64,000 bases of DNA from Nitrosopumilaceae archaeon (GCA_965200155.1 CBDATR010000010.1:256001-320000), one strand, 5' to 3'. Counted from the stretch's first letter, positions 11,999 to 64,000 are shown. Notes: generated from the sequence alone by a model not told the origin. Made by a program: numbers and translations.

Positions 11999-12700
11999 TT
12001 GCTTCATACAGGTTTTAACTTGCAACAGAGAACTATGTTTTATGGCATAGTATGTACATTGGCGTGCACCGCTATTCTGGGTGAGGCTCATGCGCACACG
12101 CTGGACTCAATGGAGGGGTATCGTCTAGAGATAGGATGGATGAATAGTCCACCTTATTCCGGAGAGGTAAATGCCATAGTCTTACACATAAGCCCAATGA
12201 TGCCAGGGCTGGAACTGGAAGAGCAGCCATTTAGAGACGGCGTAGCAGGTCTACGAGACACCCTAAAGATGCAGCTGGTCTCTGCAACTTCCAGTCTCAC
12301 ATTGAGACTGGATCCTGACCCCGACATACCCGGCAAATATTATGTGTTTACCAAAATAAACAGGCCAGGCTTCTATCAAGCCAATCTTATAGGCACCATA
12401 AATGACGCCAACATTAACATCAGTATGCACCCGCCTCAAGTACGCAACGCCGAGCATATCACGTTTCCTCAGGAATATGGTATGATATACGATGTAGTTG
12501 CAACACAGGATATGCTACAGGAGAGATTGGACAACATTACACTTTCACACCAAGCGGAGTTTGAAGAGATTCGCCAAGAAATAGACATACAGGAACAACC
12601 TGTAGAACCAACGCTGCCATACGTAATTGCAGGTATTGGGGTAGTTATGGGAGCAGTGGCCATGGGCATGGCTGCCAAGACATACAGAAGGCTAGGATAG
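11999..12700 (+). CDS. Hypothetical exported, membrane-anchored protein (start may be ~12035)
   Basis: Signal peptide ending AHAH, EIGW..PP motif, C-terminal TM helix. Confidence 0.75.
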   Translation: MLHTGFNLQQRTMFYGIVCTLACTAILGEAHAHTLDSMEGYRLEIGWMNSPPYSGEVNAIVLHISPMMPGLELEEQPFRDGVAGLRDTLKMQLVSATSSLTLRLDPDPDIPGKYYVFTKINRPGFYQANLIGTINDANINISMHPPQVRNAEHITFPQEYGMIYDVVATQDMLQERLDNITLSHQAEFEEIRQEIDIQEQPVEPTLPYVIAGIGVVMGAVAMGMAAKTYRRLG

Positions 12701-12789
12701 ATCTAGCATCATCATAAGAGTGAGCGCGCGACCAAATGTAATACCGGCAGTGCCATACAGAAGGCTAGGATAGATCTAGCACCATCATA
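12681..12789. repeat. 36-bp direct duplication flanking a 37-bp foreign insert
   Basis: CATACAGAAGGCTAGGATAGATCTAGCA(T/C)CATCATA at 12681-12716 and 12754-12789. Confidence 0.92.
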
Positions 12790-13664
12790 TCTCTAGCCGC
12801 GCTGACCGATCCGTGTATGCGGCGGGCTTCCTCCAGTTGTACCGATTCATCTACATACCTGGCAGAGAAGTGTGTCAGTACTAGATTGACAACGCATGCA
12901 TTCTTGGCCAGAGTTGCAGCTTCATGTGCCGTAGTGTGTCGCGTTTCTTCAGCGCGCCTGGCCATATTTTGAGCAAAAGTTGAGTCAAATATCAAGTAGT
13001 TACAACATGTGAAAAAGTTCTCTAGCTGTTTGGTAGGTCTTGTGTCTCCCGAATATCCAATTTTAATACCCGGTCTGCGCTTTCCCAATACCTGAGCAGG
13101 AGTAATAGTGCGTCCGGATACATCCACACTTTTTCCTCGTTGGAGTTGTGACCATAACCGTCCTTTAGGCACACCCAAGGCTTTTGCCTGATCTGGATAG
13201 AACTGTCCGGGCTTCTCCTTCTCCTCAAGTACATACGAGTATGCAATTATGCCATGATCCGCACTACAGGCCCTTACCGTATACTGATCAGTCTGGCAAA
13301 CAACGCCGTCAGCAATATCACACACACTAAGATCAAAGGACGGCCTAAAGTCCAGCATCTCCATATTGAGCTCAATGAACCTCTTGGTTCCCCGGGGACC
13401 GTAAATTGAGAGCGGCCTCTGGCGCTTCTGCAACGACATTGTTTGAAGCAGGCCCAGAGCCCCGAGACAGTGATCACCATGCAAGTGTGTTATGTATATG
13501 CTCATCTTCTTGTTCCAACCCAGACCTGCCTTGCCATATGCCATCTGCGCTCCCTCACCGGCATCAAACATCAGTATCTCGCCTCCTCTATTCACGCATA
13601 TGCACGGATTATTCCTCTTTTTTGTAGGAAGTGATGCGGAAGTGCCCAAAAATATTATCTGCAT
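12765..13664 (-). CDS. rnz: Ribonuclease Z
   Basis: FLGTS, FDAGEG, THLHGDH, SGDTRP, THFSARY motifs. Confidence 0.96.
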   Translation of the reverse strand: MQIIFLGTSASLPTKKRNNPCICVNRGGEILMFDAGEGAQMAYGKAGLGWNKKMSIYITHLHGDHCLGALGLLQTMSLQKRQRPLSIYGPRGTKRFIELNMEMLDFRPSFDLSVCDIADGVVCQTDQYTVRACSADHGIIAYSYVLEEKEKPGQFYPDQAKALGVPKGRLWSQLQRGKSVDVSGRTITPAQVLGKRRPGIKIGYSGDTRPTKQLENFFTCCNYLIFDSTFAQNMARRAEETRHTTAHEAATLAKNACVVNLVLTHFSARYVDESVQLEEARRIHGSVSAARDMMVLDLS

Positions 13665-13872
13665 TTAGACACACTATTCACGCGCGCCTTTAAACTCACC
13701 GTCACTAGGCTGGAAAAGCATCATGAATACATGTAGAGTCATCCACATCTATTCACGTAAAGACAGAACTGTTGCCGCTTCATGGCAGAATTAATGATTG
13801 TGCATAAATTTGAATATAGGCGAACTCATGCTAAATAACCCCCGTAATTTATCGTACGCGAATGCCCCAGAT

Positions 13873-14114
13873 GTAACCGTTTAGGTCAAGTTAAGTATGA
13901 GTTCACGTCTTCCGGAATCTTATGCACAAATCACATTAACTGTCGCGATCAGTTATGCGTAAATTTAGACACAGGTGAACTCATACCAAGTTAAAGATCA
14001 ACACCTAGACGGTAAATTAGTGGGCATGTGGGAGGCGCCATAATAGAAAAAGCAAGAACATACATGTTCGCCGTGTATTTTGGACAGTTGTCCGGAGGTG
14101 ACCTAAACGGTTAC
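13873..14114. mobile_element. MITE-2 with nested MITE-1
   Basis: GTAACCGTTTAGGTCA...TGACCTAAACGGTTAC; flanks GCCCCAGAT/GCTCCAGAT. Confidence 0.9.
13895..13986 (-). mobile_element. MITE-1
   Basis: TIRs; TSD CAAGTTAA. Confidence 0.96.
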
Positions 14115-14143
14115 GCTCCAGATTACCGGTACAGAATATCGTA

Positions 14144-14980: not shown

Positions 14981-15052
14981 TTCCCATACTTCCTGTTCAC
15001 TTTATTAAACTTCTATAACGGCTACTACAAGTCTCTGCATATACATTTGTTA

Positions 15053-16583
15053 TAGCGGTCACCATAAGTCTTTGAGAACATGGCACCTCGTTCCTGGATG
15101 GTACATGGCTTTGGCTTGTCACCATTATTCCCGCCCTGACGCCTCCGGTTGGGCGGGTAGCGGTTCCCTGCCCCCCGGACGACACGCTCTGCCGCCCCAT
15201 ACAGAGAAACCGGTTACTAAACGCCGCGTTGATATCGGCGTGAAATTCCTGGTTACATATTGAATGTGTCCCTAGTTGATCGTGATTTGTCGTCAACGTG
15301 TCCACACACGTCATAGGTCTGGCTCGTTGGGCGGGTAAACCGCTCCCTCGTGTATTTCGCTGGCACAGCCACCAATTCAATCCCCAGCGCCTCGCACTTT
15401 TGCTCCACTCTCCGGCGGAACACGCCTACCCGGTTCTCGCGCATGGAGCGGTTCATCATTCTTTTGTGGTTCCCACCATGACTGGTCATTGATTTCGGTG
15501 ATAAATCCTCTAGTACCACCTTGTCCACACCTGATGTCACAGCATTTATCCATGCGAATATTATCCAAATATTGCCTGACCGCTAGTACTACCTTGTCCA
15601 CACCTGATGTCACAGCATTGACTATTCTATTCATGGTGTCATTCGTGATATTATTCGCCTGCTGCCTCAACTGGTTGATTTTCTTTTCGATCTTTCGCTT
15701 TCTGCGCTTACCCTTTCTGGATTTAATACTCTGTAGGTAACGGATCTCCCGCAATATGGAACGATGCCTCATGTCGTGAATCATTGTTCCACCATTCGTG
15801 TCGGCTGTTACAACCAGGTGTTTCCTGCCGACATCCACGCCACGAATGACACCGGTTGTCACATGCCTTTCGGGAACGATTCCAACATTGATATGAATCT
15901 CGAATTTGCGTTCTCCTGGAAGTCCTCTTGTCTGTTCTCTCGACTAGTTTGAATGAGCGCATGTTCCAGGAATGAACGATTGGCTTTGTCGTTCTCGCGA
16001 CACCAAAACCCGACAAGTATAGTTTGCGAGAACCGCGCCTTATCGGCGGACTCACACATGAAAGTATGATTCTTTTATTGTCACGCCGGTGTGGTATGTA
16101 ATCAGAATGATCCTCGTACGCGCGCCTACACGCGATAGGCGCCTGTAATATGGCGCCCCGGCCATAGTTAACTGGTAACTTGTGCACCAATTCAATATCA
16201 CGACGCCACTTTGTTAATTCCAAGAATAGACCATTTGTATAACCGTTCTAGAACGTGGTAGCTGATTCATGTAGAGTGGATCGCCCTTCTTAAGATTGTA
16301 TGGTGACTTGGCGGACTCGTTCCTATTCTTGACCTTGGCCGGATCATGCTTCAATTCTAGAGTGGTTCCGGGCATATCATAACCGCCAAGACTGATCTCG
16401 TATACGGCTCTCTATTATAGACACAATCGGATGTATGACCAAATATCTTGGTACGCCGGGAGGATTCCCTATCCGTTTTCAACGGTATTCCGGGTTATGT
16501 CATCCATTATCTGGTGATTCTACTCTAGTAGTGGTTCTATAAAGTACGGTTCTATACCCGGCAGAGACTTATGATGGGCGTTA
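15053..16583 (-). mobile_element. tnpB: TIR-bounded element carrying a frameshifted TnpB gene (subfamily A, copy 1)
   Basis: RuvC motifs GVDVG, VLEDL, HADINAA across frames; ends TAGCGGTCACCATAAGTCTTTG / CAGAGACTTATGATGGGCGTTA; TA on both flanks. Confidence 0.88.
15510..15619. repeat. 37-bp direct duplication flanking a 36-bp foreign insert, inside tnpB
   Basis: CTAGTAC(C/T)ACCTTGTCCACACCTGATGTCACAGCATT at 15510-15546 and 15583-15619; absent from the paralog near 27514. Confidence 0.92.
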
Positions 16584-16732
16584 TACGCACAACCCCCGTC
16601 TTGTATACCACAAACTTATGAAGCACTCCATAAAAGTAACATCTTATCAACAAGTTTCCGTTTTTCTTGCGACTAAACAAATCCTGTAGAAATGTAGTGT
16701 GTTCATATAAAACAAAAACTTTAGTGAACTGG

Positions 16733-18034: not shown

Positions 18035-18133
18035 TGTGAAAGATATTGACGTATCATATAATGGTGATACGGCATTACATTACTGACATACATAGCACCC
18101 ATACCCAGTATATGCACACTTTATTCTATATAG

Positions 18134-27058: not shown

Positions 27059-28505
27059 TAGCGGTCACCGTAAGTCTTTGAGAACATGGCACCTCATTCC
27101 TGGACAGTGCATGGGTTTGGCTTGTCACCATTATTCTCGCCCTGACGCCTCCGGTTGGGCGGGGAACGGTTCCCCGCCCCCCGGACGACACGCTCTGCCG
27201 CCCCATACAGGGAAACCGGTTACTAAACGCCGCGTTGATATCGGCGTGAAATTCCTGGTTACATATTGAGTGTCCCTAGTTGATCGTGATTTGTCGTCAA
27301 CGTGTCCACACACGTGATAGGTCTGGCTCGTTGGGCGGGTAAACCGCTCCCTCGTGTATTTCGCTGGCACAGCCACCAATTCAATCCCCAGTGCCTCGCA
27401 CTTTTGCTCCACTCTCCGGCGGAACTCACCTACCCAGTTCTCGCGCATAGAGCGGTTCATTGTTCTTTTGTGGTTCCCACCATGACTGGTCATTGATTTC
27501 GGTGATAAATCCTCTAGTACCACCTTGTCCACACTTTTGGTGATCGCGTGAACGATTCTATTCATGGAGTCGTTTCGCTATGTTGTTGGCTTTCTGTCGT
27601 AACTGAATGATTGTATGAGTTCACGTCTTCCGGAGTCTTACGCACAAATCACATTAACTGTCGCGATCAGTTATGCGTAAATTTAGACACAAGTGAACTC
27701 ATACTAATCGTGTTCCCGTTCGTGTCCGCCAAATGTTTACCGCCAACGTCCACGCAGCGAACAACGCCGGTTGACACGTGCCTTTCAGACACCATTCCAA
27801 CATTGATGTGAATCTCGAATTGACGCTCCCTGCTCTTGTTAACTCGTTCCACTAGAATGAGCGCATCTCCCCGGGAACGATCGATTGGTTGTTCTCACCA
27901 CGCCAAAACCGCACAGGCCCAACTCGAACTCACCACGACGGATTGGTGACCCCACACATGATAGTATGATTCTGTCATTGTCACGCCGGTGTGGCATGTC
28001 ATTGGAATAATCCCGTATGCGCGCCTGCACGCGACAGACGCCTGTAGTATGGCACTCCGGCCATAGTTAGCTGGTAACTCGCGCATCCACTCCAGATCAG
28101 GGCGCCACTTTGTCTATTTCAGGAACAACCCATTCTTGTTGGACGGGTAAACCGTCCCCCGATAACCGTTCTAGAACGTGGTAGCTGATTCAAGTATAAT
28201 GAATCACCCTTCTTTAGGCCGTATGGTGACTTGGCGTACTCGTTCTTATTCTTGATCTTGGCCGGATCATGCTTCAATTCAAGAGTGGTTCCGGGTATGT
28301 AGTAACCGCCAAGACTGATCTCGGATACGGCTCTATTATAGACATAATCGGATGTGTGACCAAATATCTTGGCGCGCCGGAAGAATTCCCTATCCGTTTT
28401 CAACTGCATTCCGGGTTATGTCATCCATCATCTGGTGATTCTACTCTGGTAGTGTTTCTATAAAAGTACGGTCCTATACCCGGCAAAGACTTATGGTGGG
28501 CGCTA
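27059..28505 (-). mobile_element. tnpB: TIR-bounded TnpB element (subfamily A, copy 2), pseudogenised
   Basis: Homologous to 15053-16583; ends TAGCGGTCACCGTAAGTCTTTG / CAAAGACTTATGGTGGGCGCTA; TA on both flanks. Confidence 0.88.
27613..27704 (-). mobile_element. MITE-1 without TSD (adjacent deletion in tnpB)
   Basis: Flanks GAATGATT / TAATCGTG; sequence present in copy 1 is missing here. Confidence 0.92.
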
Positions 28506-28674
28506 TACATCGCCGGTAACAGCATTACACAGCTTTTGGTTGTCCAGCTGGTGGGATATCATAAACTCGCTCTCAGATTGAACCCCGAAGGCCCGTCACG
28601 CGTATGAGTGCAAGGATAGGTAAACTTATGCTATAACGTAGTTCGCTGATTTGTAATTCGCAAGCGATCACGTG

Positions 28675-29985
28675 TTACCGGCGGCGAGCCACGATTATAG
28701 CTATCAGTACGGCAAGAACAATGACCGCCACAATAATTAGTAGCATGGTATCAAGACCGGTGCCGGAGTCTCCTGCATCCAGCCCGGACAGTCCCGGTAT
28801 GGGCGAGGTCGACCTGTCTTGTACAACAGGCTCATCCACCATAATGGTAGTCTGGTGCGTCAGAAAGTGCTCCTCCCGTACATCATCTTTGTAACGGAGA
28901 GTTATCTCTACGTCATGCTCTCCGTATGTGGGAGAACCATCAAACTCCAGTGGGAGATTGAAGGGTACCGGCGAATCTGTCTCTATCTCGTCTATGAACT
29001 GTGTCTGGGAACGTATATTGGAATCACCTGTAGGGTCCAGGGAGACAAAACCGAATCGAGCATCCTCGTTGCCCTCGTTTATGATCTCGCCTATGACCAT
29101 AAGGTTGTCAGATATAGTGATAGTCTCTACTCCGTATATCACCGCATCTACGAGTCCTCGCACGTAAAAGTCGACGGTCTTGTTCTGTGTAACCTTGTTC
29201 CCGTGCGCGTCAAAATGCGTAATCTCCAGCGGCAACCGCAAAATGTCCCCCCGCATAGTCTCCGGTATGTATATTGTGACATCCAGGAGTGCCACTGAGT
29301 GGGGCTCTATATTTCCCAAGTCCCAGCTGGACTCGTATATCACCACATTACTCGTGCTGGTTTGTGTGTTGTCCATGGCACGCACATCAAGTCCCAATGT
29401 CCTTACATCCACACTGGACATGGGGGCGGTGCCGTTGTTCACAAGTTGTATTGTGGCGGTATTGGCCTGAAGTGACACAAGGAAGGGATCCATCGCGGTC
29501 ACATGTAAAGTACTGCTTCCGGGAACCCGGAAGTAGAAATCAAAGTAGGCATTACGCAATCCCGACTCGCGAAGTCTGGAATATTCCACCTTGGCGGCGC
29601 CAGGATACTGCTGTATTGATATGTTGGGCTCCAAATTTAGAAAGAAGGTGAGATAAAATACCTCCCCGGCCTCGGAGTTGGTATTGCTGTCCGATTGGGC
29701 CACGTATCCGATACTGTCCGACGGAGTAAATCCGTATGGTAGTGAGAGCTCACCACGAATTCCGGTTATATCATGAGTTCCCACATTGGCCAGCACTATC
29801 GTAAAGGGCACATTCTTGTCACCGGGCGAGACCTCTGACTGGTTCTCAAATGTGCCAAAGTATGAATCCAGGAATTTTATGTCTCCAAAATCCCTCTCAA
29901 AGGGAGAATCGCCAAAGCCCTGGGCAAAAGCCAGACCAAACAGTGAGGTAGCCAAAACTACACCCAGAAACAAAGCCACAATCAT
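28675..29985 (-). CDS. COG1361-like S-layer-domain protein
   Basis: Signal peptide, repeated N-x-G beta-sandwich motifs, C-terminal TM plus RRR; in an ABC operon. Confidence 0.75.
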   Translation of the reverse strand: MIVALFLGVVLATSLFGLAFAQGFGDSPFERDFGDIKFLDSYFGTFENQSEVSPGDKNVPFTIVLANVGTHDITGIRGELSLPYGFTPSDSIGYVAQSDSNTNSEAGEVFYLTFFLNLEPNISIQQYPGAAKVEYSRLRESGLRNAYFDFYFRVPGSSTLHVTAMDPFLVSLQANTATIQLVNNGTAPMSSVDVRTLGLDVRAMDNTQTSTSNVVIYESSWDLGNIEPHSVALLDVTIYIPETMRGDILRLPLEITHFDAHGNKVTQNKTVDFYVRGLVDAVIYGVETITISDNLMVIGEIINEGNEDARFGFVSLDPTGDSNIRSQTQFIDEIETDSPVPFNLPLEFDGSPTYGEHDVEITLRYKDDVREEHFLTHQTTIMVDEPVVQDRSTSPIPGLSGLDAGDSGTGLDTMLLIIVAVIVLAVLIAIIVARRR

Positions 29986-30674
29986 ATTGGAACACCCATT
30001 CTATACTGCGGAGTAATGGCACCGTCTCTCATATTTATTATACGATCCACATCGCCAAAATCGTTCGGATCATGGGTCACCACCACAAATGTCTGGTTGA
30101 GTTTATGACACATGGACTTGAGTAGCTGTACAATGTTCTCCGAGTTAGTTGAGTCCAGGTTTCCAGTGGGCTCATCGGCCAACACTAACGCGGGTCGGTT
30201 GGCCAATCCTCGGGCAATGGCGGCACGCTGCGCCTGGCCACCAGAGATGCGATCCGCCCTTTTGTACATATGATCTTCCAGTCCCACTGTACGAAGGAGT
30301 TCCTTGGCGTACTCTTTGGCGTTACTCCCGCCAGCAACCTGTACCGGCAACATCACGTTCTCTAGTACGGTTAGATCCACCAGCAGGTTGGAGAACTGGA
30401 ATACAAAACCAAGTTTCTTACTGCGGAAAGTGGATGTCTTGGACTCGTTAAGTGAGGTGGTGTCGATGCCGTCTATTCTTATGGTACCGTCATCAGGCTT
30501 GTCCAGTAAGCCAATCTGGTTAAGCAGGGTAGTCTTGCCGGAACCGGAACTCCCAGATATCAGTACAAACTGGCCTCTTTTTATGGTGAAGGACACCTCA
30601 TTCAATGCCAAGAAGCGGTTCTCGCCCTGTCCATACTCCTTGGTCAGGCCGGTGACTTCCAGTATATCATCCAT
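29982..30674 (-). CDS. ABC transporter ATP-binding protein (LolD/MacB-like)
   Basis: [25 protein letters not shown] motifs. Confidence 0.95.
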
Positions 30675-31875
30675 ATCTCATTGCCTCCACCGGCAATAGC
30701 CTGGTAGCCCTGTAGGACGGATACAGTGACGCAATCATGGCAAGAGCAAAAGACGTAGCTGCGGTCTGTCCTATTTTGAACCAGTCATAAGATACCTCCA
30801 GGGGCAGGCTGTTGTTGAAGGAGAGCTTGGTCTCCTTGGCATAGAATGTGTACGCAAGACCCGCGGACGTTCCCACGCCAGCTCCAATGGCACCAATCAG
30901 CATACCCTGTATGAGAAATATTATCAGAACATCCCTTCGTCGTGCCCCAATCGACCTCATAATGCCTATCTCCTTGGTCTTGCCATTGACCAGCATCATC
31001 TGAATTGTCACTATGGCAAAGGCCGAAGACATCATGCCAAAGTATCCAATTAGGTTTATCATTGCTATGCCAGAACGGAAGCCAGCCAATTGTTGCTCGG
31101 CAGACTCCTCCAGAGTCTCTGCCACAAAGTCCTGGTATGGGAAGGACACCAAAAAGAGATCCCGAACCTCCTCTGCCCTGTCCGGATCCACGCGAACCAT
31201 TATAGAACCGGTAACACCATCTCGGCCAAGCATATCCCGCAATGTATCTATATGTAAGACTGCCCGAAAGTCCAGACCCTGCCCTCCAGGAGAGTTGGAT
31301 ATGCCAGATACCACCAACCGTCTCACCTGATCTTGCCCCCAGCGATCGGTGACACCCAGTTGTACGGCGTCACCAACCTGCACATCACCCAAATCCCTGG
31401 CCACTGTTGCTCCCAGAACTATGGAGTTGCGTGCATAGACATAGGTACCGTCATTTACGGTAGTGTGCGCAGTGGATGCGCGCACATCCTGAATAGGATC
31501 CACACCCAGAAGAGAAACCCTGCTGTTCTGTATTAGCTGGCCATTCTTTGTCATATTTATCTCACCGCTACCGGATAATCGGGGGGCCGCGGCATCCACA
31601 TAAGGTATACGCTCAAACCAGTTTATTAGGGTCCTATCTGACATCTCGATAAGGCCACGCTCATGAGTGACTAGTAACTCCCCGTTATGGTATTCGGTGA
31701 TATCCCGAACTATGGCGTCGTACAATCCCTGAAATACTACAAAATTCACGTGTAGTACCAGGATGCCCACGGTGACTGCCATGATGGCGCCTATCAGACT
31801 TCCCTTCTTGTTAAATAGCATTTTCCTAGAAAGGTTTAGTCTGTAATCCATCCTGTCTTTAGAAGCACTTTTCAC
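30667..31875 (-). CDS. ABC transporter permease (FtsX/LolC-like)
   Basis: KEIGIMRSIGA, YPSYRATRL motifs; 4-TM topology. Confidence 0.92.
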   Translation of the reverse strand: MKSASKDRMDYRLNLSRKMLFNKKGSLIGAIMAVTVGILVLHVNFVVFQGLYDAIVRDITEYHNGELLVTHERGLIEMSDRTLINWFERIPYVDAAAPRLSGSGEINMTKNGQLIQNSRVSLLGVDPIQDVRASTAHTTVNDGTYVYARNSIVLGATVARDLGDVQVGDAVQLGVTDRWGQDQVRRLVVSGISNSPGGQGLDFRAVLHIDTLRDMLGRDGVTGSIMVRVDPDRAEEVRDLFLVSFPYQDFVAETLEESAEQQLAGFRSGIAMINLIGYFGMMSSAFAIVTIQMMLVNGKTKEIGIMRSIGARRRDVLIIFLIQGMLIGAIGAGVGTSAGLAYTFYAKETKLSFNNSLPLEVSYDWFKIGQTAATSFALAMIASLYPSYRATRLLPVEAMRYG

Positions 31876-32030
31876 TATTTAGTTATACGGTTATCCTAGT
31901 GCTAACTGTCCAAGTGGCAGTCACACTTCCCCCCACCATGGTACCGGTATGCTCCCGGCGGACATGTATGCACTGCACACGTCAGAATGGCGCGCCGAGG
32001 ATTGTGGAATTTGGCACCATTGCGCCCCAG

Positions 32031-32140
32031 AATGCCGAACGCTGGAACAGTTACTCCCAGTGAATCCTTATGCCATGATTGACAGTAACAGCCCATGTTG
32101 CTTCAATGCCGAACGCTGGAACAGTTACTCCCAGTGAATC
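32031..32140. repeat. 36-bp direct duplication flanking a 38-bp insert copied from the IS5-element end
   Basis: AATGCCGAACGCTGGAACAGTTACTCCCAGTGAATC at 32031-32066 and 32105-32140. Confidence 0.93.
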
Positions 32141-32208
32141 TATGGAGTATAAATCACGATTGCGCTCCGACAGGTGTTTTAAAATTAGGGAGTGGTAGGA
32201 TTAGTCCT

Positions 32209-33528
32209 ATGGAGGTATCGGCTAGGGAAAAATACGAAGAGGTATTCTCCCGTATTCAGGATCACCACAAATGGTTTGCCCAGTCCATACCCCTCATAGC
32301 TAGCGAGAACGTACCCAGTCCGGCCGTGCGGGAGGCCATAATCTCGGATTTTGGTAACAGGTATGCAGAGGGTTGGCCCGGGGAGAGGGTGTATGCGGGA
32401 TGCACGTATATCGATGAGGTGGAGATAGAGTGTATGAAGCTGGCGCAGAGGCTGTATGATGCAGAGTTTGTGGATGTGAGGCCCATATCAGGAGTGGTTG
32501 CAAACTTGGTGGTCTATTCGGCGTTTACCAAGGCAGGGAACACATTACTGGCACCATCCATACCCGCGGGAGGGCACATATCCCACGGAAAACGCGAGCA
32601 TTCCGGAACCGCAGGGTTGGTACACGGGCTGGATGTGAAATTCTATCCGTTTGATCCTAAAGAGATGAACATTGATGTGGATAAGACAAAGAGTATGATA
32701 GAAAAGACGGTCGCATCCGGCGACACCCCAAAAATGGCAATGTTTGGCGGATCACTATTCTTGTTCCCCCACCCCCTGCGGGAACTGGCAGATTTTCTAA
32801 AATCACACGGCATGCATATCAATTATGATGCCGCCCATGTAGCGGGGTTAATCGCGGGAGGGGAGTTTCAGGATCCACTAAGAGAGGGAACGGACACCAT
32901 GACTATGAGTACCCACAAGACCCTTTTTGGTCCCCAGGGTGGCATAGTAATAGGCAACCATGACAACCAGGAGGCCATAAAAAAGGCCACCTTCCCGGGC
33001 ATGACCAGCAGCCACCACATACACCACATGGCCGCCAAGGCCATAGCATTCGCTGAAGCCTTGGAGTTTGGCAGGTCCTACGCAAAGCAGACCATAACAA
33101 ACGCCCAGGCACTGGCAGAGGCGCTGGTGGAGAGAGGCTTCAAGGTACTGGGCGAGAACCACAACTACACCAAGTCACACCAGGTAGCGGTGGATGTTCT
33201 GGAGTACTCTGACGGCGGCCAGGTAGAGGCCCAGTTGGAGAAGGCCAACATAATAGTGAACAGGCAGCTCATACCGGGCGACATAAAGATGGGTCGAAAC
33301 TATTTCCATCCCGGCGGCATACGGCTGGGAGTCTCCGAGGTCACAAGATTGGGAATGCGTAAAGACCAGATGCTGCAGATAGCCGATCTCATCAAAGAGG
33401 TAATAATAGAACACAAAGATCCAGTCCGGACAAAAGAGAAGGTCTCAGAGCTCCGCAGAGACTTTCAGAAGGTGCATTACTGCTTTGATGCCAAGACAGG
33501 GGCTTACGAGTACATCAAGCTCCGGTAA
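32209..33528 (+). CDS. glyA: Serine hydroxymethyltransferase
   Basis: LIASEN, RYAEG, GGHISHG, YDAAHVAG, STHKT motifs. Confidence 0.97.
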   Translation: MEVSAREKYEEVFSRIQDHHKWFAQSIPLIASENVPSPAVREAIISDFGNRYAEGWPGERVYAGCTYIDEVEIECMKLAQRLYDAEFVDVRPISGVVANLVVYSAFTKAGNTLLAPSIPAGGHISHGKREHSGTAGLVHGLDVKFYPFDPKEMNIDVDKTKSMIEKTVASGDTPKMAMFGGSLFLFPHPLRELADFLKSHGMHINYDAAHVAGLIAGGEFQDPLREGTDTMTMSTHKTLFGPQGGIVIGNHDNQEAIKKATFPGMTSSHHIHHMAAKAIAFAEALEFGRSYAKQTITNAQALAEALVERGFKVLGENHNYTKSHQVAVDVLEYSDGGQVEAQLEKANIIVNRQLIPGDIKMGRNYFHPGGIRLGVSEVTRLGMRKDQMLQIADLIKEVIIEHKDPVRTKEKVSELRRDFQKVHYCFDAKTGAYEYIKLR

Positions 33529-42658: not shown

Positions 42659-43927
42659 TTATAACAACTCATCAAGATTGTTATCCTCACGTAGTGTTCT
42701 CATAATAAGTTCGGAGGAGATGTTTAGACTGAACTTTTTTGTCCTCCCATGTGATCCCTGATTAACTATACGCCCATTTATTATACCAGACATTTCCAAT
42801 TCACTTAGTATTTGTGTGACTCTCCTTGGTGTAAGTTCACGTTGTCCTATGCGTCTGCACATGCCTTTGTAGGTTGTATAGATTTTCCCAGTTATAAGAC
42901 CGTTGGAGCGTACCACTGACAGAATTAGTACTTTTTCGTGTAGTGGATAGGATCTTATGGCCGTAACCTCCTTGTCCTCCTCTATCTTCAGATGAGCCGT
43001 CCGTACGTGCTCAGACGTCACACCGCCTGCCTGATCCCTCTCTGCAACCTCACCGGCAACTCTAATCAAATCTATTGCGCGCCGGGCATCACCATGTTCC
43101 CCACCAGCCAGTGCTGCGCATAAACTCAGTGCAGATTCATTCACAACGCCGGGTTGGAATGCTATCTGTACACGTTCTTTTATTATGGAATGTAGTTGTT
43201 CTATGGAATAGTTTGGAAATACTATTTCTTCCTCGCCAAGACTACTAATCACACGAGGATCCAGTCTCTCCTTGAATGTCAAATCATTTGATATTCCAAC
43301 TAGTGTTAGTGATCCGAAAGAGAGTCTCTCGTTGGCCCTAGTTATGTTATATAAGACATCTTTCTGCCCCGCAGAAACCAGTTTGGCCAGAAAATCAATC
43401 TCGTCTATTATCAGGACTACGTTTGCACGACTTTTTTCTATATTGTGCAGCATTCTTTTAAAGACCTCACTTATGGCTATACCAGTCCATGGGAGTTCTT
43501 TCTCATCCATACCAAACTGTCTGCCCAAACTTACCAAAAGTCCATACAATGTAGACTCTTCTTTCGAGTTGGCATAGACCAGTTGTATAGGAAATGTTGA
43601 TCGTTTTACCCTTTCCTGTATTTTTCGTATAACGCGTTTCACGATTAATGTTTTACCAGTACCGGGCTTACCATAAACCAGCATGTTAGAGGGCCTGGAT
43701 CTCCTCAATATTGGAGCTAGTGATTGTGTAACTTGTCTTTGTTCTGCATCTCTGTGTAGCACTGTATCTGGCATATGTGTATAATGTAACACATCCCTAT
43801 TCTGTATCAAAGCGACGCCTGCCTCCATCTCATCTAACATATCATCTATCGGATCAGTTACACTCACACCACCATTTCCACTGCATAAGGATTTAAGCAC
43901 ATGTTGGTATACTTCACTCATTCTCAT
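42659..43927 (-). CDS. cdc6: Orc1/Cdc6 replication initiator (true start probably near 43863)
   Basis: YGKPGTGKT, IIDEID, GDARRAIDL motifs and a C-terminal wH domain. Confidence 0.96.
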   Translation of the reverse strand: MRMSEVYQHVLKSLCSGNGGVSVTDPIDDMLDEMEAGVALIQNRDVLHYTHMPDTVLHRDAEQRQVTQSLAPILRRSRPSNMLVYGKPGTGKTLIVKRVIRKIQERVKRSTFPIQLVYANSKEESTLYGLLVSLGRQFGMDEKELPWTGIAISEVFKRMLHNIEKSRANVVLIIDEIDFLAKLVSAGQKDVLYNITRANERLSFGSLTLVGISNDLTFKERLDPRVISSLGEEEIVFPNYSIEQLHSIIKERVQIAFQPGVVNESALSLCAALAGGEHGDARRAIDLIRVAGEVAERDQAGGVTSEHVRTAHLKIEEDKEVTAIRSYPLHEKVLILSVVRSNGLITGKIYTTYKGMCRRIGQRELTPRRVTQILSELEMSGIINGRIVNQGSHGRTKKFSLNISSELIMRTLREDNNLDELL

Positions 43928-44118
43928 TCACTCATTCTCATTTTCATACATCAATGGAGTAGAAATGGTGGGGGGTGTCTATGTTAATCTGGGGTTAACA
44001 TGGATGCTTGGATTGAGAACAGAATGTATCGAATTGACCCCCTCATTTCCACTGCAAGTGTGAAAACACTCCTTAACAACACAAAGAGTTCATATTGACC
44101 CCCTCATTTCCACTGCAA
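43868..44118. promoter_or_regulatory. Probable replication origin with ORB elements
   Basis: ATTGACCCCCTCATTTCCACTGCAA at 44033-57 and 44094-118; related boxes near 43870 and inverted near 43960; immediately upstream of cdc6. Confidence 0.82.
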
Positions 44119-44287
44119 ACCTAACACCGATATTGGTCTATGAGAAGATTAACAGATTGTATCACAACTCAGCATGATGGAACGTCATGTTAACAAAACA
44201 CCACACATACAAACACATAGAACAGACAAATTAACAGTTAACAGTAACCGACTATGGTTAAATACTCACATTGTTAACAACTGCGAC

Positions 44288-44653
44288 TTGGTCAGGCGTA
44301 TACGCATAGACATGGATGATGGTGATGGTCTTAAACTGGACATCAAACTGGAGGGCGAGGTAACAAAAGAGAAACTTTTGAAAGTGTATGAAATGATGGA
44401 AATGATGGAAAGTAAACAAACCACAACCCCTGATTCTGTTGGTACCAAAATATGGCATGTGGTGGAGAAATACTTCCCATTGGGTAATTTTACATCATCC
44501 CTTGTACTGGAAAAGTATGAGGACGAGTATAACCAACCTATAAAACTAAGCGTAATCTCCACATATCTATCTCGTTTCACATCCAAGTCGAAACTAAAGA
44601 GAAAGAAGACCGGTAAAGAATGGATGTATGTTCTACCCACAATCACCGCATAA
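44288..44653 (+). CDS. Hypothetical wHTH-like protein
   Basis: YEDEYNQPIKLSVISTYLSRF; start inferred. Confidence 0.7.
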   Translation: MVRRIRIDMDDGDGLKLDIKLEGEVTKEKLLKVYEMMEMMESKQTTTPDSVGTKIWHVVEKYFPLGNFTSSLVLEKYEDEYNQPIKLSVISTYLSRFTSKSKLKRKKTGKEWMYVLPTITA

Positions 44654-52121: not shown

Positions 52122-53585
52122 TTGTTATTGCCTTATAGAAACAATGGTGGTAAGCCGCAACGACTGAGCTACACTGAAGATGATGTATTTGAGATGCTGG
52201 AACGGGATGAAATTAGGTTCATCGACATGCAGTTCAGCAGCTTGCCCGGACGGTTTCATCATACAACTATCTCCGCTACTACATTCACCAAAGAGCAGAT
52301 GCGAGACGGTCTTCCCAAACTTGATGGCTCATCTATCATTGGATTTGCAAGCATAGAAGACTCGGATCTCATAATCAAACCGGATCCAAGCACATACGCC
52401 ATAATACCATGGCTCACGGACAACAAGACCTGCAGACTAATCTGTGACGTATATTGGGGTCAGGGAAGGGGTAGGCTATCCAGGGATCCTCGGGGAATTG
52501 CGCAAAAGGCCGAGAGTTACATAAAGGAATTCGGATTTCACAGCTTCTGGGGTCCTGAGGTAGAATTCTTTGTATTTGACAAGGTACACTGGGATGTACT
52601 TACTCCCTATAAGGGTCAGTCATACTCCATTGAGTCGCAGGAGGCTCCTTGGAACCAGGAGGGATCAGGCTACCCCATGGGTCTCAAACGTGGGTATTAT
52701 CCCAGTACGCCGTCCGATACTCTTTCCCCCTTCCGTAATGATTGCGTAAACATACTTAACACAAACTTTGGCATCTTGTGTGATAATCATCATCACGAGG
52801 TAGCTACCGCGGGTCAGTGCGAGATAGACATAATGTATGACACTCTTACTAATGCCGCCGATTCGGCGCAGTCATACAAGTTTATCGTACGTAATGTAGC
52901 ACAAAAACATAACAAGGTTGCAACAATGATGCCAAAACCCATAGCCATGGATGCCGGTTCCGGCATGCATACCAACGTGAGTTTGTGGCGCAATGGAGAG
53001 AACGCTTTCTATGATGAGAACAGTCCTGATGAATTGAGCCAGGTTGCCAGATACTTTTGTGGCGGCGTGATGGGCCATGCCAAGGCACTCTCCGCAATCT
53101 GCAACCCTACCACAAACTCGTATCATAGACTGGTCCCCGGATACGAGGCACCGGCATACATCGCATGGAGCTCCAGTAACCGCTCTGCCATAGTGCGGGT
53201 TCCAAAGCATTTCAAGGGCAAGACTCACTCAACACTGAAAAGGCTGGAGTTTCGCGCCCCGGATCCCTCGGCTAACCCATATCTTGTCTTTGCAGCTGTA
53301 ACCGCTGCAGGGCTGGATGGTGTAAAGAAGAAGACGGACCCCGGCGATCCAGTACAGGAGGACATATTCAAGATGACTAAAGAGGAGCGTATACAGAGAG
53401 ATATTGGTATTCTCCCCTCAACCTTGGGTGAGGCGCTGGACTGTTTGGAGTCAGACAGTAAATTCCTAAAGCCCATCTTTACATCAGATGTAATAGAAAA
53501 ACTGATCTCGCTTGGCAAACAGGATCAACGAGAGATATCCATAAGGCCGCACCCCCACGAGTTCTATCTATATTTTGATGTATAG
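52122..53585 (+). CDS. glnA: Glutamine synthetase type I
   Basis: DGSSI, GPEVEFF, HHEVA, GSGMH, RLVPGYEAP, RLEFRAPD motifs. Confidence 0.97.
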   Translation: MLLPYRNNGGKPQRLSYTEDDVFEMLERDEIRFIDMQFSSLPGRFHHTTISATTFTKEQMRDGLPKLDGSSIIGFASIEDSDLIIKPDPSTYAIIPWLTDNKTCRLICDVYWGQGRGRLSRDPRGIAQKAESYIKEFGFHSFWGPEVEFFVFDKVHWDVLTPYKGQSYSIESQEAPWNQEGSGYPMGLKRGYYPSTPSDTLSPFRNDCVNILNTNFGILCDNHHHEVATAGQCEIDIMYDTLTNAADSAQSYKFIVRNVAQKHNKVATMMPKPIAMDAGSGMHTNVSLWRNGENAFYDENSPDELSQVARYFCGGVMGHAKALSAICNPTTNSYHRLVPGYEAPAYIAWSSSNRSAIVRVPKHFKGKTHSTLKRLEFRAPDPSANPYLVFAAVTAAGLDGVKKKTDPGDPVQEDIFKMTKEERIQRDIGILPSTLGEALDCLESDSKFLKPIFTSDVIEKLISLGKQDQREISIRPHPHEFYLYFDV

Positions 53586-54608: not shown

Positions 54609-55451
54609 CTACGCCTGCAAAGCCTGGGGTGCGGTCCAAGCCTCGTTTATCTCCTGAAATACGCTCAGGTTATGCATAGCCGCGGTTCCTATTTGGACTG
54701 CTGTAGCGCCCACCTGCAGAAATTGAAATACGTCTTTTGCATTGCATATGCCACCACACCCCATAATGGGTATGGTATTGCCATGTCTCACTCTTATGTC
54801 ATGTATGGTTCTCAGGGCTATGGGTTTTATGGGCTTGCCTGAGAGTCCGCCGGTACCGTGACTGAGCAGTGGCCGCCCTGCATCATCCAGTGCTAGGGCA
54901 GGTACAGTGTTTATCGCCGTTATTCCGTCTATGCCAGCCTTTATTGCTACGTCGACGCCGGGCATCATGCTTGGTCCAACCTTGGCAAAGACGGGCGTGG
55001 TGTGGGCAACTTTTTTTGCCGTAGACACTATATCCTGTACTAACTTCGGATTGTCTCCTACCTCCCGACCCAGATGCTCTGCATGGGGACATGACAAGTT
55101 CAGCTCAAATCCCGCAACACCATCAAACAGGGGTATCATTTCGGCAAAATCGTCGGGGGAGGATCCCGCCATGCTCACTATTACGGGAAAACTTGGTCTT
55201 CCCAGGGCGCGGGCAAACTGGTGGGCTCCGCCATTATTCAGGCCTATGGCGTTAACATAACCGCCTCCATCCACCGGTACAAAGTTGGGCTCTGGATTGC
55301 CCTCACGCGGATTCACGGTAAGTGACTTTGTAACCGTTGCACCCGCGCCACTCTTGTATACCTCTTCTAGACTCTGTGGTGTATTTCCCCGCAGACCCGA
55401 TGCCAGGATTGCGGGCCCCTCTAGCGTCAGCGGACCTAAGTGTATGGACAT
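54609..55451 (-). CDS. pyrD: Dihydroorotate dehydrogenase (family 1)
   Basis: TKSLT..REGNPEP, NAIGL, ELNLSCPH, GGLSG, GCGGI motifs. Confidence 0.92.
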   Translation of the reverse strand: MSIHLGPLTLEGPAILASGLRGNTPQSLEEVYKSGAGATVTKSLTVNPREGNPEPNFVPVDGGGYVNAIGLNNGGAHQFARALGRPSFPVIVSMAGSSPDDFAEMIPLFDGVAGFELNLSCPHAEHLGREVGDNPKLVQDIVSTAKKVAHTTPVFAKVGPSMMPGVDVAIKAGIDGITAINTVPALALDDAGRPLLSHGTGGLSGKPIKPIALRTIHDIRVRHGNTIPIMGCGGICNAKDVFQFLQVGATAVQIGTAAMHNLSVFQEINEAWTAPQALQA

Positions 55452-55531
55452 TGCCGTTAATACCACGCTTATTTACCAAATAAATCTCAAATGACTAGCG
55501 TCAGCGGACCTAAGTGTATGGACATTGCCGT
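55421..55531. repeat. 37-bp perfect direct duplication flanking a 37-bp insert, at the pyrD 5' end
   Basis: CTAGCGTCAGCGGACCTAAGTGTATGGACATTGCCGT at 55421-57 and 55495-531. Confidence 0.93.
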
Positions 55532-55538
55532 GACTTGC

Positions 55539-56503
55539 TGTAATGTATGAAAAGTCGGTCCGCTAGTCATTGGCATCCTGCTCCATCCATTTTGCATCAT
55601 TTGCCCTAATTGTCTGGGTCGCCTTTTTATTTCTAAAGACCATGAGCGGTGTTTCGCCGTTATCTATCCAGTGAGAAGTGCAATCTTCTCCCATTGTACT
55701 AGTCTACATAATCCCGGAGACTGTCATAATGCCATATCTCATTGGACTCTTAAATAAGAGTCCCCTCGTCCTCAATCATTCCATGGAAGCGCTCCAGTTT
55801 GCCATTTGTCTGCGGGTGGTATGGTCTGGAATTGATTAGTATGATGTCTTGATTCAGCAGTTCTTCCTAGAATAGTGTGTTTCCAGTTCTTTTTGCCCTT
55901 TTATTGTCCTACGAAACACGCGCCGTTATCCGAGATGCAGGGGCGCCGAATCGTTTCATTGCCAGTCTCAGTAATAGAACGGCGTTCTCTGAGGTTGCAT
56001 GCTCAAATAGTGCCTCTCCTACTATACACCTGGATGCATCATCTATGAGATTCAGTCCCCTGAAGCGCTCATCTTTCATGACATGGCAGTGCCACATTGC
56101 ATTGGAATATTTACGCTCATAGCGTACCCACTCTGACTTTGCAGGTGATGATCCTGCCGTACCGTTCTTTTTCATTATGCGACATACTGCGCGATATATT
56201 GTAATTCTGTCTAAGCCTCTTTGCAATACGTACTACTCCGGCGGGGTCCTTGCTGTATGCTTCAGTTACCATTCGTATCCGGGTGTCGGTGATTGGTATC
56301 ATGGGCCTGCCCATCTTTACTTGAGTCGTCCCCGTTCTCTGGTTCACAATCTTCGTACGTGTCTTGTTTCAGGTCTTGAGCTATTTTGTGGAGGCAACGC
56401 CTCTTTTGTCTTGATTCCTCTGTTATTCTCTTTACCATATGGCTTGTGCAATCTGAACTACTGTACGCCGGATCCTAAGCGGACTTACTTTTCGTACTAT
56501 TGA
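55539..56503 (-). pseudogene. IS481-family relic (copy C)
   Basis: Same ends as copy B; 15-bp TSD ATTGCCGTGACTTGC. Confidence 0.88.
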
Positions 56504-57759: not shown

Positions 57760-57773
57760 AACACTCCCAAGCA

Positions 57774-58232: not shown

Positions 58233-58261
58233 ATCATGTCATCACACCTGGGAGAATTAAA

Positions 58262-58353
58262 GTATGAGTTCACGTCTTCCGGAATCTTGTGCACAAATCA
58301 CATTAACTGTCGCGATCAGTTGTGCGTAAATTTAGACACAGGTGAACTCATAC
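58262..58353 (-). mobile_element. MITE-1
   Basis: TIRs; TSD GAATTAAA. Confidence 0.96.
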
Positions 58354-58381
58354 GAATTAAAATCTGTGGTGTCAACTATTG

Positions 58382-58473
58382 GTATGAGTTCACGTCTTCC
58401 GGAATCTTATGCACAAATCACATTAACTGTAGCGATCAGTTATGCGTAAATTTAGACACAGGTGAACTCATAC
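58382..58473 (-). mobile_element. MITE-1 immediately after the coaBC stop codon
   Basis: TIRs; TSD AACTATTG includes the stop codon. Confidence 0.96.
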
Positions 58474-58475
58474 AA

Positions 58476-61241: not shown

Positions 61242-61279
61242 GTATTACTCACCTGCGCGCGGGAACCCATACAATGCCA

Positions 61280-62134: not shown

Positions 62135-62185
62135 GATGCAATTCCCAACAAAATAAACGCGCCGATTGCCATTACAGCTGTCAGA

Positions 62186-63205
62186 TCAGCACCCGATTCT
62201 GAACTTCTCGTAACTGCCCTTGGCGGCGGGCACTGCCTGAATGTCCCGGCAATTACCGTCCTGCGTCACGGTCACGTATCCGGAACTATCTGGCGCATCA
62301 GAGTATGTCAGTGTTACACCCGCGGCAAATTCTACATATTCTCCGGCCCTTCTGCCCCGGAGTATGGTGGTGGGACCCACATGATCCCGTGCCTCCAGCA
62401 GTATGTCACCTGGCAGTGTCAGCATTTGTATGGTCCCGTTCTCTGCCTGGTTTCTGCCCACTACCATCTTTGTCTCATTATCCAGTCGATGCTGGCGGCC
62501 AACCTTCAGCAAGTCTATGTCATTGATTGTGGGGTTCTCTGTGTGATCAAATAGATCCTTGACCCGGAGACCAAAGATAGGATCCGTTAGCAGGCAGCCT
62601 CCTCCCGCATTGGGCGGATCCTTTATTCCCATCTCTTGGGCCATGGCTAACTGCGGTTTCCTACTTCGGCCCCTTATTATTCCTAGATCCTCCCGCTTGA
62701 TTAACCCGCTCTTTTCGGGTTCAGTAGCCGGAAGAAGGCCTCCTGAGAGCGGCCGGAGTATCTTCCCCTCCAATTGGGATTCTGCCTCTATGGTCTTTAG
62801 GGCCTTCCGGTGCTGGCTCATGGGTCGCTGGCCCAGCACTTCCCCGGATATTATAAACTCGGCCCCTATCTTTTCCATTTGATCCTTGGCCGCATCAAAC
62901 ATCATCGCCCTGCAGTCGACACACGGATTGAAGCCGGCGCCCCTGCCATATTTTGGAGACTTTAGCATCTTGATATACTCGTCTCCCAGGTATACTGTCT
63001 TCAAGTCAACATTCAGATCATCTGCGCGCTCCCTAATCTCAAAACCACAGCCCCGTCCACAATCAAAGTCACAAAAGGGGGTCTTTATTGCAACCGCAGA
63101 TACCTCAAATCCCTGCTTCTGCATCATGCGCACGGCCAGCTGGCTGTCCAGGCCACCGGATAGCAATGCTACCACCTTCTTCTTTTCCATGTGATACGCT
63201 GGCAT
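62186..63205 (-). CDS. ThiI/MnmA-like PP-loop tRNA thiolation protein with a DUF814-like C-terminus
   Basis: LLSGGLDS, NPCVDCR, GEVLGQRPMSQ, AGGGCLLTD, VGRN motifs. Confidence 0.85.
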   Translation of the reverse strand: MPAYHMEKKKVVALLSGGLDSQLAVRMMQKQGFEVSAVAIKTPFCDFDCGRGCGFEIRERADDLNVDLKTVYLGDEYIKMLKSPKYGRGAGFNPCVDCRAMMFDAAKDQMEKIGAEFIISGEVLGQRPMSQHRKALKTIEAESQLEGKILRPLSGGLLPATEPEKSGLIKREDLGIIRGRSRKPQLAMAQEMGIKDPPNAGGGCLLTDPIFGLRVKDLFDHTENPTINDIDLLKVGRQHRLDNETKMVVGRNQAENGTIQMLTLPGDILLEARDHVGPTTILRGRRAGEYVEFAAGVTLTYSDAPDSSGYVTVTQDGNCRDIQAVPAAKGSYEKFRIGC

Positions 63206-63215
63206 ACTGTGTATA

Positions 63216-64000
63216 TAGCACTAACCATAAGTCCTTGCCCATGGTTTTTCGTGGCGCCGAAACCTCACACGATCGTCATCATGTTCATGTTATGTCGGAT
63301 TTCCGCCCCATGAACACAGGATGACTTGCTCCGCCTCCCGTTGCAGGATATTTCGCGCGGCATTTACGCCCGCGTGAGTATCCTGCGGACACTGGGTACA
63401 AATGAATTTGCCCCATAATGTTCGTGTTTTCTTGTCAATATTCCCATACACAAAGCATTTCTGGCTCGTGTGGTGACTGTGAGTCGAGATTAGATGGATT
63501 CCTTTCTCCTTGCACTTTTGTTCCAACTTTCTCAGGAACCCACCAACACGATTGTGTCGCATCATTCCATTAATATCGTGTTTCCGGTTGCCGCCGTGAC
63601 TGGTCATGGGTTTTAGAGAGGTTCTCGACACCGACCGAGTCCACACCGTCTGCGACTTGTTTGATGATGTGGTTCATCCGGTTCGTTGCAACGTTGCCAC
63701 CTTTCTTCCACAACCGGCGAATCTGCTTCTCTAATAGTTGCCGACTTCGACATCCAGTACCGTGATTCCCAGTGAAGATGAGGCTCTGGGCGAATCTGCT
63801 TCTCTAATAGTTGCCGACTTCGACATCCAGTACCGTGATTCCCAGTGAAGATGAGGCTCTGGGCGAATCTGCTTCTCTAATAGTTGCCGACTTCGACCCT
63901 TCAAGTGTGTGAGTCGACCCTTTAACCGGTTGATTTTTCCAGTATCTTGCGGTGCTCCATAGAATGGGAGGCTATCATTCCCGCTGAGTCGGCTGTGACT
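63216..64000 (-). pseudogene. tnpB: TnpB relic (subfamily B), runs off the window end
   Basis: Reverse complement of ~38441-39075; TIR TAGCACTAACCATAAGTCCTTG preceded by TA. Confidence 0.85.
63716..63897. repeat. Three 36-bp repeats separated by two identical 37-bp inserts, inside the tnpB relic
   Basis: GGCGAATCTGCTTCTCTAATAGTTGCCGACTTCGAC at 63716-51, 63789-824, 63862-97; single copy in the paralog near 38543-38578. Confidence 0.93.

Follow-up and report, generated by a model that had tools for sequence, protein, structure and literature searches.

The 64,000-nt window analysed here, C10:256001-320000 in the genome of a Nitrosopumilaceae archaeon, contains five loci, designated units A to E, at which 36-37 nt of local sequence is duplicated on either side of an insert of 36-38 nt. 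These five belong to a set of about 64 events in the genome, and the units are very probably the products of off-target spacer integration by Cas4/1-Cas2 of the resident type I-G-like CRISPR system. Below, D designates a copy of the duplicated target and S the insert, or spacer, so that a simple unit has the layout D-S-D, and positions given without a contig label are counted from the first letter of the window. An initial annotation of the window had already located the five loci, and a direct-repeat analysis reproduced both the coordinates and the lengths; the identity of the two inserts of unit E to each other is an addition. Its proposal that a relaxed-specificity Cas1-Cas2 has been scattering spacers across the chromosome is supported by a genome-wide peak in direct repeats, by the machinery encoded in the genome, by donors for 31 of 69 inserts, by independently built contigs and by a second genome. 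The alternative that it offered, an integrase of unknown kind with two molecular rulers, is not needed.

The genome (G000) is a metagenome-assembled genome of 2,380,067 bp in 51 contigs and is 87.6% complete. Throughout the assembly, direct repeats of at least 24 nt pile up at periods of 72 (125), 73 (123) and 74 (75) nt, with harmonics near 146, 219, 292 and 364, and most of the repeats with periods of 72-74 belong to a single canonical CRISPR array on contig C9. With this array excluded and pairs inside shorter-period arrays removed, 200 pairs remain. Their repeat lengths peak at 36 (24 pairs) and 37 nt (38 pairs), and their periods at 72 (34), 73 (19), 74 (9), 75 (7) and 71 (7); among the other periods up to 140, period 66 reaches seven pairs and none of the rest exceeds three. 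Defining a unit by a repeat length (L) of 33-42 and a period of 69-78 gives 69 isolated pairs, with L of 36 in 20 and of 37 in 32, and with periods of 72 (30), 73 (18), 74 (8), 75 (6) and 71 (4), so that 66 of the 69 fall within 71-75. The inserts are 27-40 nt in length and 64 are distinct; three insert sequences recur, only in paralogous copies of the same element. The direct-repeat peak is far beyond chance. It is sharp, at L of 36-37 and periods of 72-75, and extends to the whole genome what the initial annotation had described for the window, although the density given there, one unit per 13 kb, is too high for the genome as a whole, which has one per 37 kb. The count of 69 retains outliers, C12:2392 and its copy C22:46844 (L 42, period 69), C29:837 (L 42, with mismatches) and C34:37402 (period 78), some of which may not be integration events. 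Many small contigs of the assembly (C2-C4, C6, C14-C18, C26-C29 and others) have a G+C content of 35-42%, versus 45-52% for the large ones, and some of them contain GT/CA microsatellites; these low-G+C contigs may derive from another organism in the bin.

The assembly has a single Cas1 match, with neither a second Cas1 nor a casposase. The match lies within an open reading frame (ORF) of 549 amino acids with Cas4 and Cas1 domains (Pfam). Residues 9-548 of its product align with the solved structure 7MI4, a Cas4/Cas1 fusion (E value 1e-147), and the C-terminus is intact. On C9, cas4/1 is followed by a gene for a 91-amino acid Cas2, a leader of ~165 bp and the array, beyond which are genes encoding Cas3 with a C-terminal HD domain and GSU0054- and GSU0053-family proteins (Pfam). 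The large-subunit gene was not identified, and a 319-amino acid ORF adjoining cas3 has no Pfam match. This gene set is that of type I-G, formerly designated I-U. The array starts at ~C9:71010 and has 288 invariant repeats of exactly 36 nt. Its 287 periods are 73 (101), 72 (84), 74 (63), 71 (16), 75 (15) and others (8), with 279 in the range 71-75, and its spacers are mostly 36-38 nt in length. As the initial annotation stated, the window itself has no cas1 and no canonical array; both are on C9, where the Cas4/1 fusion, Cas2 and an array of 36-nt repeats with lengths that match those of the units are encoded together. Since the duplications have the length of the canonical repeat, and the inserts the length of the canonical spacers, the rulers of the resident integrase fit the isolated units.

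Within the array, the adjacent spacers 160 and 161 are identical (36/36), and the region counted as spacer 61 is 57 nt long, with its first 20 nt the same as those of spacer 62 and an array period there of 93. A solitary repeat at C43:128227 (- strand) has 33 of its 36 positions in common with the canonical one and is preceded by sequence that resembles the end of the main leader; the locus has the look of a second leader followed by one repeat and zero spacers. Near the cas genes, C9:100754-103429 (- strand) encodes an 891-amino acid protein with DUF1156 and DNA methylase domains that may belong to another defence system.

In the mechanism that we propose, an integrase carrying a prespacer of ~36-38 bp would attack two phosphodiesters, 36 bp apart and on opposite strands, in ordinary DNA rather than in the leader-proximal repeat, and gap repair would then duplicate the 36-bp target on either side of the insert to generate D-S-D. 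The 36-bp stagger and the insert length would be the two rulers already at work in the construction of the canonical array. A D-S-D unit that is hit again would become a neo-array with three or four repeats or, as suggested for unit E, a unit might be tandemly duplicated. We infer catalysis by Cas4/1-Cas2 from the geometry of the units and their co-occurrence with these genes, and the order of events is likewise a proposal.

Origin of the inserts

Elsewhere in the genome, matches are present for 38 of the 69 inserts. For 31 of these, identity ends within 5 nt of the insert boundaries and, as identity stops where the insert stops, the matching sequences are true donors, that is, protospacers; the other seven are paralogous copies of whole units. 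No match at all was found in the 87.6%-complete assembly for the remaining 31. Where a donor resolves the boundaries, 36 nt is the commonest length of the duplicated target, and most of the spacers measure 36-38 nt. The contrast with the array is large, with self donors for 31 of 69 off-target inserts versus a match outside the array for just 1 of the 287 canonical spacers. That one spacer shares an overlap of 26-28 nt with the insert of unit C25:4760, and the array and an off-target site have therefore sampled overlapping pieces of the same DNA. Many prespacers would, in the proposed mechanism, be cut from the cell's own chromosome. Self spacers in an expressed canonical array would be lethal or purged by autoimmunity but could persist, without harm, at off-target sites, where the flanks are not CRISPR repeats, and these sites would keep an unfiltered sample of what is captured. 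A TTN sequence, a candidate protospacer-adjacent motif (PAM), is located beside 9-10 of the 31 donors, versus the 12.8% expected for random 36-mers (p 0.013 to 0.004).

The donors also contradict an origin of the units by slippage during replication, or by tandem duplication in place, with the middle part diverging afterwards. True tandem repeats do occur, at unit E and at other loci; including unit E, there are ~8 further clean loci with tandem copies of a 71-74-bp unit in which the inserts are identical. The inserts, however, bear no relation to the sequence around them, for 31 there are exact donors elsewhere that end at the insert boundaries, and the insert of unit E is itself one of those with a donor. 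Furthermore, the flanking D copies are identical in 49 of the 64 events, and the middle cannot therefore have diverged. We give slippage almost no credence.

Donors present as single copies are unevenly distributed. Contig C10 makes up 22.7% of the assembly and has 14 of these 25 donors (binomial p 3e-4), spread over 28-479 kb around a putative origin, and the capture of prespacers may be biased towards the part of the chromosome near the origin. This origin is in the window, where a Cdc6/Orc1 gene (42659-43927, - strand) adjoins a repeat-rich intergenic stretch. A 25-nt motif occurs there three times, at 43862, 44033 and 44094, together with several short tandem repeats at 43826-44411, and the whole region (42659-44411) is probably a replication origin. 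A gene for the DNA polymerase small subunit is located at 39112-40536.

Target sites, sequence support and a second genome

Ungapped empty-site paralogs, with 81-100% identity, are present within the genome for 21 units. Two loci had been credited in the initial annotation with such paralogs inside the window. This holds for unit E (Table 1), whereas the paralogs of unit B, of which there are at least six with 82-86% identity, are all elsewhere in the genome. A comparison of 1.2 kb around unit D with 31 genomes gave matches in 13, none of which spans the insertion site, and the matches to the flanks of unit D outside G000 are mostly to a repeated element upstream of pyrD, with 62-88% identity. 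Orthologous empty alleles are missing here because the species representatives are too divergent at the nucleotide level, and the empty-site evidence therefore comes from the paralogs within the genome and from the cas4/1-cas2 junction of a related genome described below.

The surviving units carry a signature that would be expected of selection against harm. The period is divisible by three in 34 of the 64 events, versus 101 of the 287 array periods (odds ratio 2.1, Fisher p 0.010), and at C22:16729-16838 and C43:106025-106132 in-frame 72-nt units are located inside open frames of 599 and 268 amino acids, respectively, each adding 24 residues, with 12 flanking residues duplicated, to an otherwise ordinary protein. 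The events that survive would be the low-harm ones, at gene ends, in intergenic DNA, in frame or in transposase and TnpB genes. A stop-to-stop test of ORF disruption was set aside as it overstated the effect, the 'restored' frames of units C and D including non-coding upstream DNA, and breakage of essential genes is not claimed.

A 51-contig bin that is 87.6% complete might be suspected of assembly or chimera artefacts, and at unit C the DNA contigs do break off at 32066, where the exact 36-nt repeat ends. The window region is, however, present in nine public runs from three studies. Separately built contigs of runs X3 and X4, from a second study, and of X1, from the probable source study, cover 12600-13920 with zero differences and bridge unit A, and a contig of X4 covers 15427-16057, also with zero differences, and bridges unit B. 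For unit C, one contig of the RNA library X6 spans 28475-32103, through D1 and the insert, and is used here as sequence cover and not as evidence for transcription. Among the joints listed, none skips 73-74 bp. The junctions that the initial annotation had wished to see confirmed are thus bridged at units A and B by independent contigs, the same class of unit is present in a complete, single-contig relative, and an in-frame bias and placement at gene ends would be hard to obtain from misassembly. An artefact is barely conceivable as the source of the pattern.

After de-duplication, the targets form 47 unrelated families, most of which occur in just two copies, and individual targets have, at best, 11-17 of 36 positions identical to the canonical repeat. 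The isolated units do not have a conserved single repeat, shared by many units and positioned next to a leader. To the eye there is, as the initial annotation stated, no clear consensus, but a weak motif is detectable statistically, with an orientation- and offset-free motif search returning 7.41 bits of information for the 47 targets versus 4.67-5.31 bits in 15 random sets. A first run of this search, which gave 9.86 bits, was discarded as it was dominated by the family of hot-spot sequences in IS66 elements, and the 47 de-duplicated targets were used instead. This hot spot measures 36 nt and is part of the 5' coding region of an IS66-family transposase. The sequence is present at 66 loci, as a single copy at 50 and with 2-4 copies at 16, and the multi-copy loci have at least six different spacers, in the same register throughout; the count omits a 6-nt 'spacer' at C24:175463, which is an artefact of overlap. 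Two of the hot-spot spacers recur at many loci, and copies of the IS66 element that carry a mini-array have therefore kept spreading. DNA beside the cas locus is also favoured, with 5 of the 64 events located within 9 kb upstream of the leader versus 0.24 expected (P 5.7e-6). Two of these five make up a neo-array of three repeats, placed exactly where cas4/1 stops and cas2 starts, in which the first repeat copy keeps the stop and the third keeps the start. Site choice is, we conclude, only weakly sequence-directed, with one strong hot spot and a bias to DNA beside the cas locus.

The few loci with three or four repeats, and the CRISPR-like lengths of repeats and spacers, would also be consistent with small functional arrays of other, unrecognised CRISPR systems, each with its own repeat. 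This is most unlikely, as it would call for 47 unrelated repeat sequences, mostly in two copies, that lie within ordinary genes (at the pyrD start, at ORF ends and in transposases) and have single-copy empty-site paralogs, in a genome with just one Cas1, and for 31 of 69 spacers to target the cell's own chromosome.

Cas1 is present in 19 of 61 genomes sampled from the family, with fusion-sized frames in several. One of these genomes (G061), from another genus, is complete in a single contig of 1,858,698 bp and encodes a Cas4/1 that is 58% identical to the G000 protein. Its 36-nt repeat has 27 of 36 positions in common with the G000 repeat, and its array has 135 repeats with periods of 71-75. 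The repeat scan of this genome returned 63 pairs, of which 38 were dropped as members of a protein-repeat family with a 75-nt period. Such repeats, of 25 residues, are encoded at many loci, for example 110877-111885 and 1602009-1628064, and therefore give rise to a false peak at period 75. There remain 25 isolated units, with L of 34-42 and periods of 69-74, and self donors are present for 10 of these 25 inserts versus 2 of 134 canonical spacers. The cas4/1-cas2 junction of G061 is uninterrupted and so provides the orthologous empty site for the G000 neo-array. As G061 has off-target units with this junction uninterrupted, the insertion into the G000 junction is not the cause of the off-target activity. 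A genome without Cas1 candidates (G016) had no direct-repeat pairs with periods of 64-101 in the 800,000 of its 1,455,463 bases that were scanned.

Several observations weigh against integration by Cas4/1-Cas2. The targets barely resemble the canonical repeat, with a mean best identity of 14.57 of 36 positions versus 13.95 for random sites. L of 37 outnumbers L of 36 (32 versus 20 pairs), an excess that chance extension of a 36-nt duplication would not predict, and tandem duplication, at ~8 clean loci, is unexpectedly frequent when the canonical array has one full-length pair of identical adjacent spacers. In the 87.6%-complete assembly, 38 of the 69 inserts are without a true donor (31 unmatched and 7 paralogs of whole units), and an exact-match scan of viral contigs with two donor-less inserts found none; of the sources for the inserts that the initial annotation had in view, self DNA was recovered and viral DNA, for the two inserts scanned, was not. 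Its search for a PAM has a similarly divided outcome, with TTN enriched at the donors but lacking at 21-22 of the 31, about two thirds. The side on which TTN is located agrees with the orientation derived from the target motif in 6 of 13 cases and is inconsistent with it in 7, and the two spacers of the cas4/1-cas2 neo-array have opposite PAM sides. Directional integration, which was considered, has no support from these comparisons. The Cas1-free control is thin, being 55% of a single genome, and the assignment of catalysis to Cas4/1-Cas2 draws on geometry and co-occurrence.

Targets with so little likeness to a CRISPR repeat, and an insert orientation that is seemingly random relative to TTN, would suit an integrase or transposase unrelated to Cas1 that makes a 36-bp staggered cut and inserts pieces of ~37 bp. 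For such an enzyme, however, both rulers would need to coincide with those of the resident Cas4/1-Cas2 in two genomes; it would also need to draw on DNA from which a canonical spacer was taken as well and to be missing from the scanned part of the Cas1-free control, and its 64 distinct inserts, which have neither shared termini nor a common sequence, would be unlike those of any transposon. We consider this very unlikely and, with the reservations above, retain off-target integration by Cas4/1-Cas2 as the explanation for the units.

The units in the window and their surroundings

The positions of the five units, and of the other features of the window to which they relate, are listed in Table 1. 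Unit A is located where two convergent ORFs end, and both ORFs stay whole as each D copy holds the stop codon of one of them; a search of the assembly found no donor for its insert. Unit B is inside a TnpB-like (OrfB_IS605) gene on the - strand that was already fragmented, and unit E is within a fragment of a TnpB-like gene. The insert of unit E has a donor at C24:59620-59656 (37/37), and our reading of this locus is a single integration followed by tandem duplication of the 73-bp unit.

Unit C is intergenic, upstream of a serine hydroxymethyltransferase gene. The corresponding ORF is at 32095-33528 and its first ATG falls in the insert of unit C, with the Pfam SHMT match starting at residue 47. 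The insert is a copy of a multi-copy element, for which the best donor is C10:156134-156171 (38/38). At unit D, the duplicated 37 nt come from the beginning of the dihydroorotate dehydrogenase gene (pyrD; ORF 54609-55466, - strand) and include its start codon and first codons. The coding sequence is intact thanks to the gene-proximal D copy, and the upstream region has been moved 74 bp off. No donor for the insert of unit D was found in this assembly, and no exact match in the viral contigs.

Table 1. Repeat-insert-repeat units and related features of the window
Feature	Position	Strand	Description
Unit A (12681)	D1 12681-12716, insert 12717-12753 (37 nt), D2 12754-12789		D 36 nt, 1 mismatch; period 73
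ORF at unit A	11999-12700	+	Stop codon within D1
ORF at unit A	12765-13664	-	Metallo-beta-lactamase fold; stop codon within D2
Unit B (15510)	D1 15510-15546, insert 15547-15582 (36 nt), D2 15583-15619		D 37 nt, 1 mismatch; period 73
Unit C (32031)	D1 32031-32066, insert 32067-32104 (38 nt), D2 32105-32140		D 36 nt, copies identical; period 74
Donor (protospacer) of first spacer of the neo-array at the cas4/1-cas2 junction (C9:70400)	35117-35150	-	34/34; TTG upstream
Empty-site paralog of unit E	38463-38658	-	One copy of 36-nt target; ungapped versus restored site, 95.9% identity
IS66-family transposase gene	40827-42092	+	Window copy of hot-spot-bearing element; only a degenerate single target, near 40887
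Donor (protospacer) of insert of unit C5:96434	52550-52586	-	37/37
Unit D (55421)	D1 55421-55457, insert 55458-55494 (37 nt), D2 55495-55531		D 37 nt, copies identical; period 74
Unit E (63716)	63716-63897; D 63716-63751, 63789-63824, 63862-63897; S 63752-63788, 63825-63861		D-S-D-S-D; 73-bp unit, 2.5 copies

The region upstream of pyrD (55540-56100) is a repeated element of ~560 bp, with 12 other copies in the genome at 93-95% identity. Two tandem copies of a 92-nt element, bounded by the 12-mers GTATGAGTTCAC and GTGAACTCATAC in inverted orientation, are present at 58262-58473. Eight places in the window have related 20-mers that end in GTGAACTCATAC, and the 12-nt ends span 6197-58473. This 92-nt element looks like a miniature inverted-repeat transposable element (MITE).

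Relation to known systems and significance

Off-target integration was reported by Nivala, Shipman and Church 2018 (Nat Microbiol), as summarised in passages of papers that cite that study, for Escherichia coli overproducing Cas1-Cas2 (PMC7054753, PMC6698737, bioRxiv 10.1101/148544). According to the same passages, new arrays were spawned, and there was circumstantial evidence for the phenomenon in two other species. As in this neo-CRISPR formation, the units have a spacer-sized insert between repeat-length duplications of non-CRISPR DNA, and repeated hits can seed arrays. In contrast to E. coli as described there, G000 is a natural genome, with no engineered overexpression, and the system is an archaeal I-G-like one with a Cas4/1 fusion. 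There are, moreover, ~64 fixed events in G000 and 25 in G061, nearly half of the G000 inserts are self-derived, and there is a hot spot inside an IS66 transposase, the element having then spread copies of the mini-array.

For the type I-G Cas4/1 of Geobacter sulfurreducens, spacers are reported to be predominantly 36 bp long, and 50% of the unique new ones to have a TTN PAM upstream (PMC6547450). The G000 protein aligns over its full length with this Cas4/1 (7MI4), and the spacers of 36-38 nt and the enrichment of TTN at donors are similarly alike. Canonical I-G integration, as reported in PMC10504553, takes place at the leader-repeat junction and is directional, with the orientation controlled by Cas4. 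The G000 events are, unlike these, outside the array and without consistent orientation, which adds to the points against Cas4/1-Cas2 listed above. For Cas1-Cas2 of Pyrococcus furiosus, off-target events in vitro were used to find how the integrase recognises its site, and points spread along the repeat are reported to contribute to site choice (PMC6698737). This distributed recognition is comparable to the weak, distributed motif of the G000 targets, although the P. furiosus events were obtained in vitro with minimal substrates and those in G000 occurred in vivo and are fixed and filtered by selection.

Transposons, MITEs and casposons also generate direct target duplications through a staggered cut and repair. 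The inserts in G000, unlike those of transposons and MITEs, have no common sequence or terminal repeats and number 64 distinct sequences and, unlike a casposon, the only Cas1 match in G000 is the cas4/1 gene at the CRISPR locus and the inserts are 27-40 nt. Duplications of 36 bp are, furthermore, far longer than the usual target-site duplications. A full-text search, with most subscription journals outside its coverage, found no published report of such a genome-wide pattern in archaea or in sponge symbionts. The units represent the same kind of event as known neo-CRISPR formation, at a natural scale for which no report was found. What is new is a natural, archaeal activity, very probably driven by a I-G Cas4/1, with dozens of fixed events in each of two genera, together with the contrast in self spacers between off-target sites and array and a hot spot carried by a mobile element.

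The G000 genome is a rare natural record of how error-prone the formation of CRISPR memory can be, and the accuracy of natural CRISPR adaptation becomes measurable from sequence alone. So also does the sampling of self DNA before selection, through the comparison of 31 of 69 off-target inserts with 1 of 287 in the array, and the cost of adaptation to a host for which it acts as an insertional mutagen. Integrase recognition can be read from the hot spot and the weak motif, and the origin of new arrays from ordinary DNA becomes addressable. A natural I-G integrase with low site specificity may, in addition, interest builders of DNA recorders.

It is possible, though somewhat doubtful, that off-target integration is an intrinsic, lineage-wide property of the I-G Cas4/1-Cas2 of this archaeal family, and frequent enough to be an evolutionary force. 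Were this so, in-frame inserts of 24-25 residues would have been added to proteins, gene starts and ends would have been remodelled and new arrays would have been seeded, some of them riding on IS66 elements. The off-target sites would then also constitute a selection-free archive of acquisition, in which ~40-45% of the raw events would be from self, preferentially from the origin-bearing part of the chromosome.

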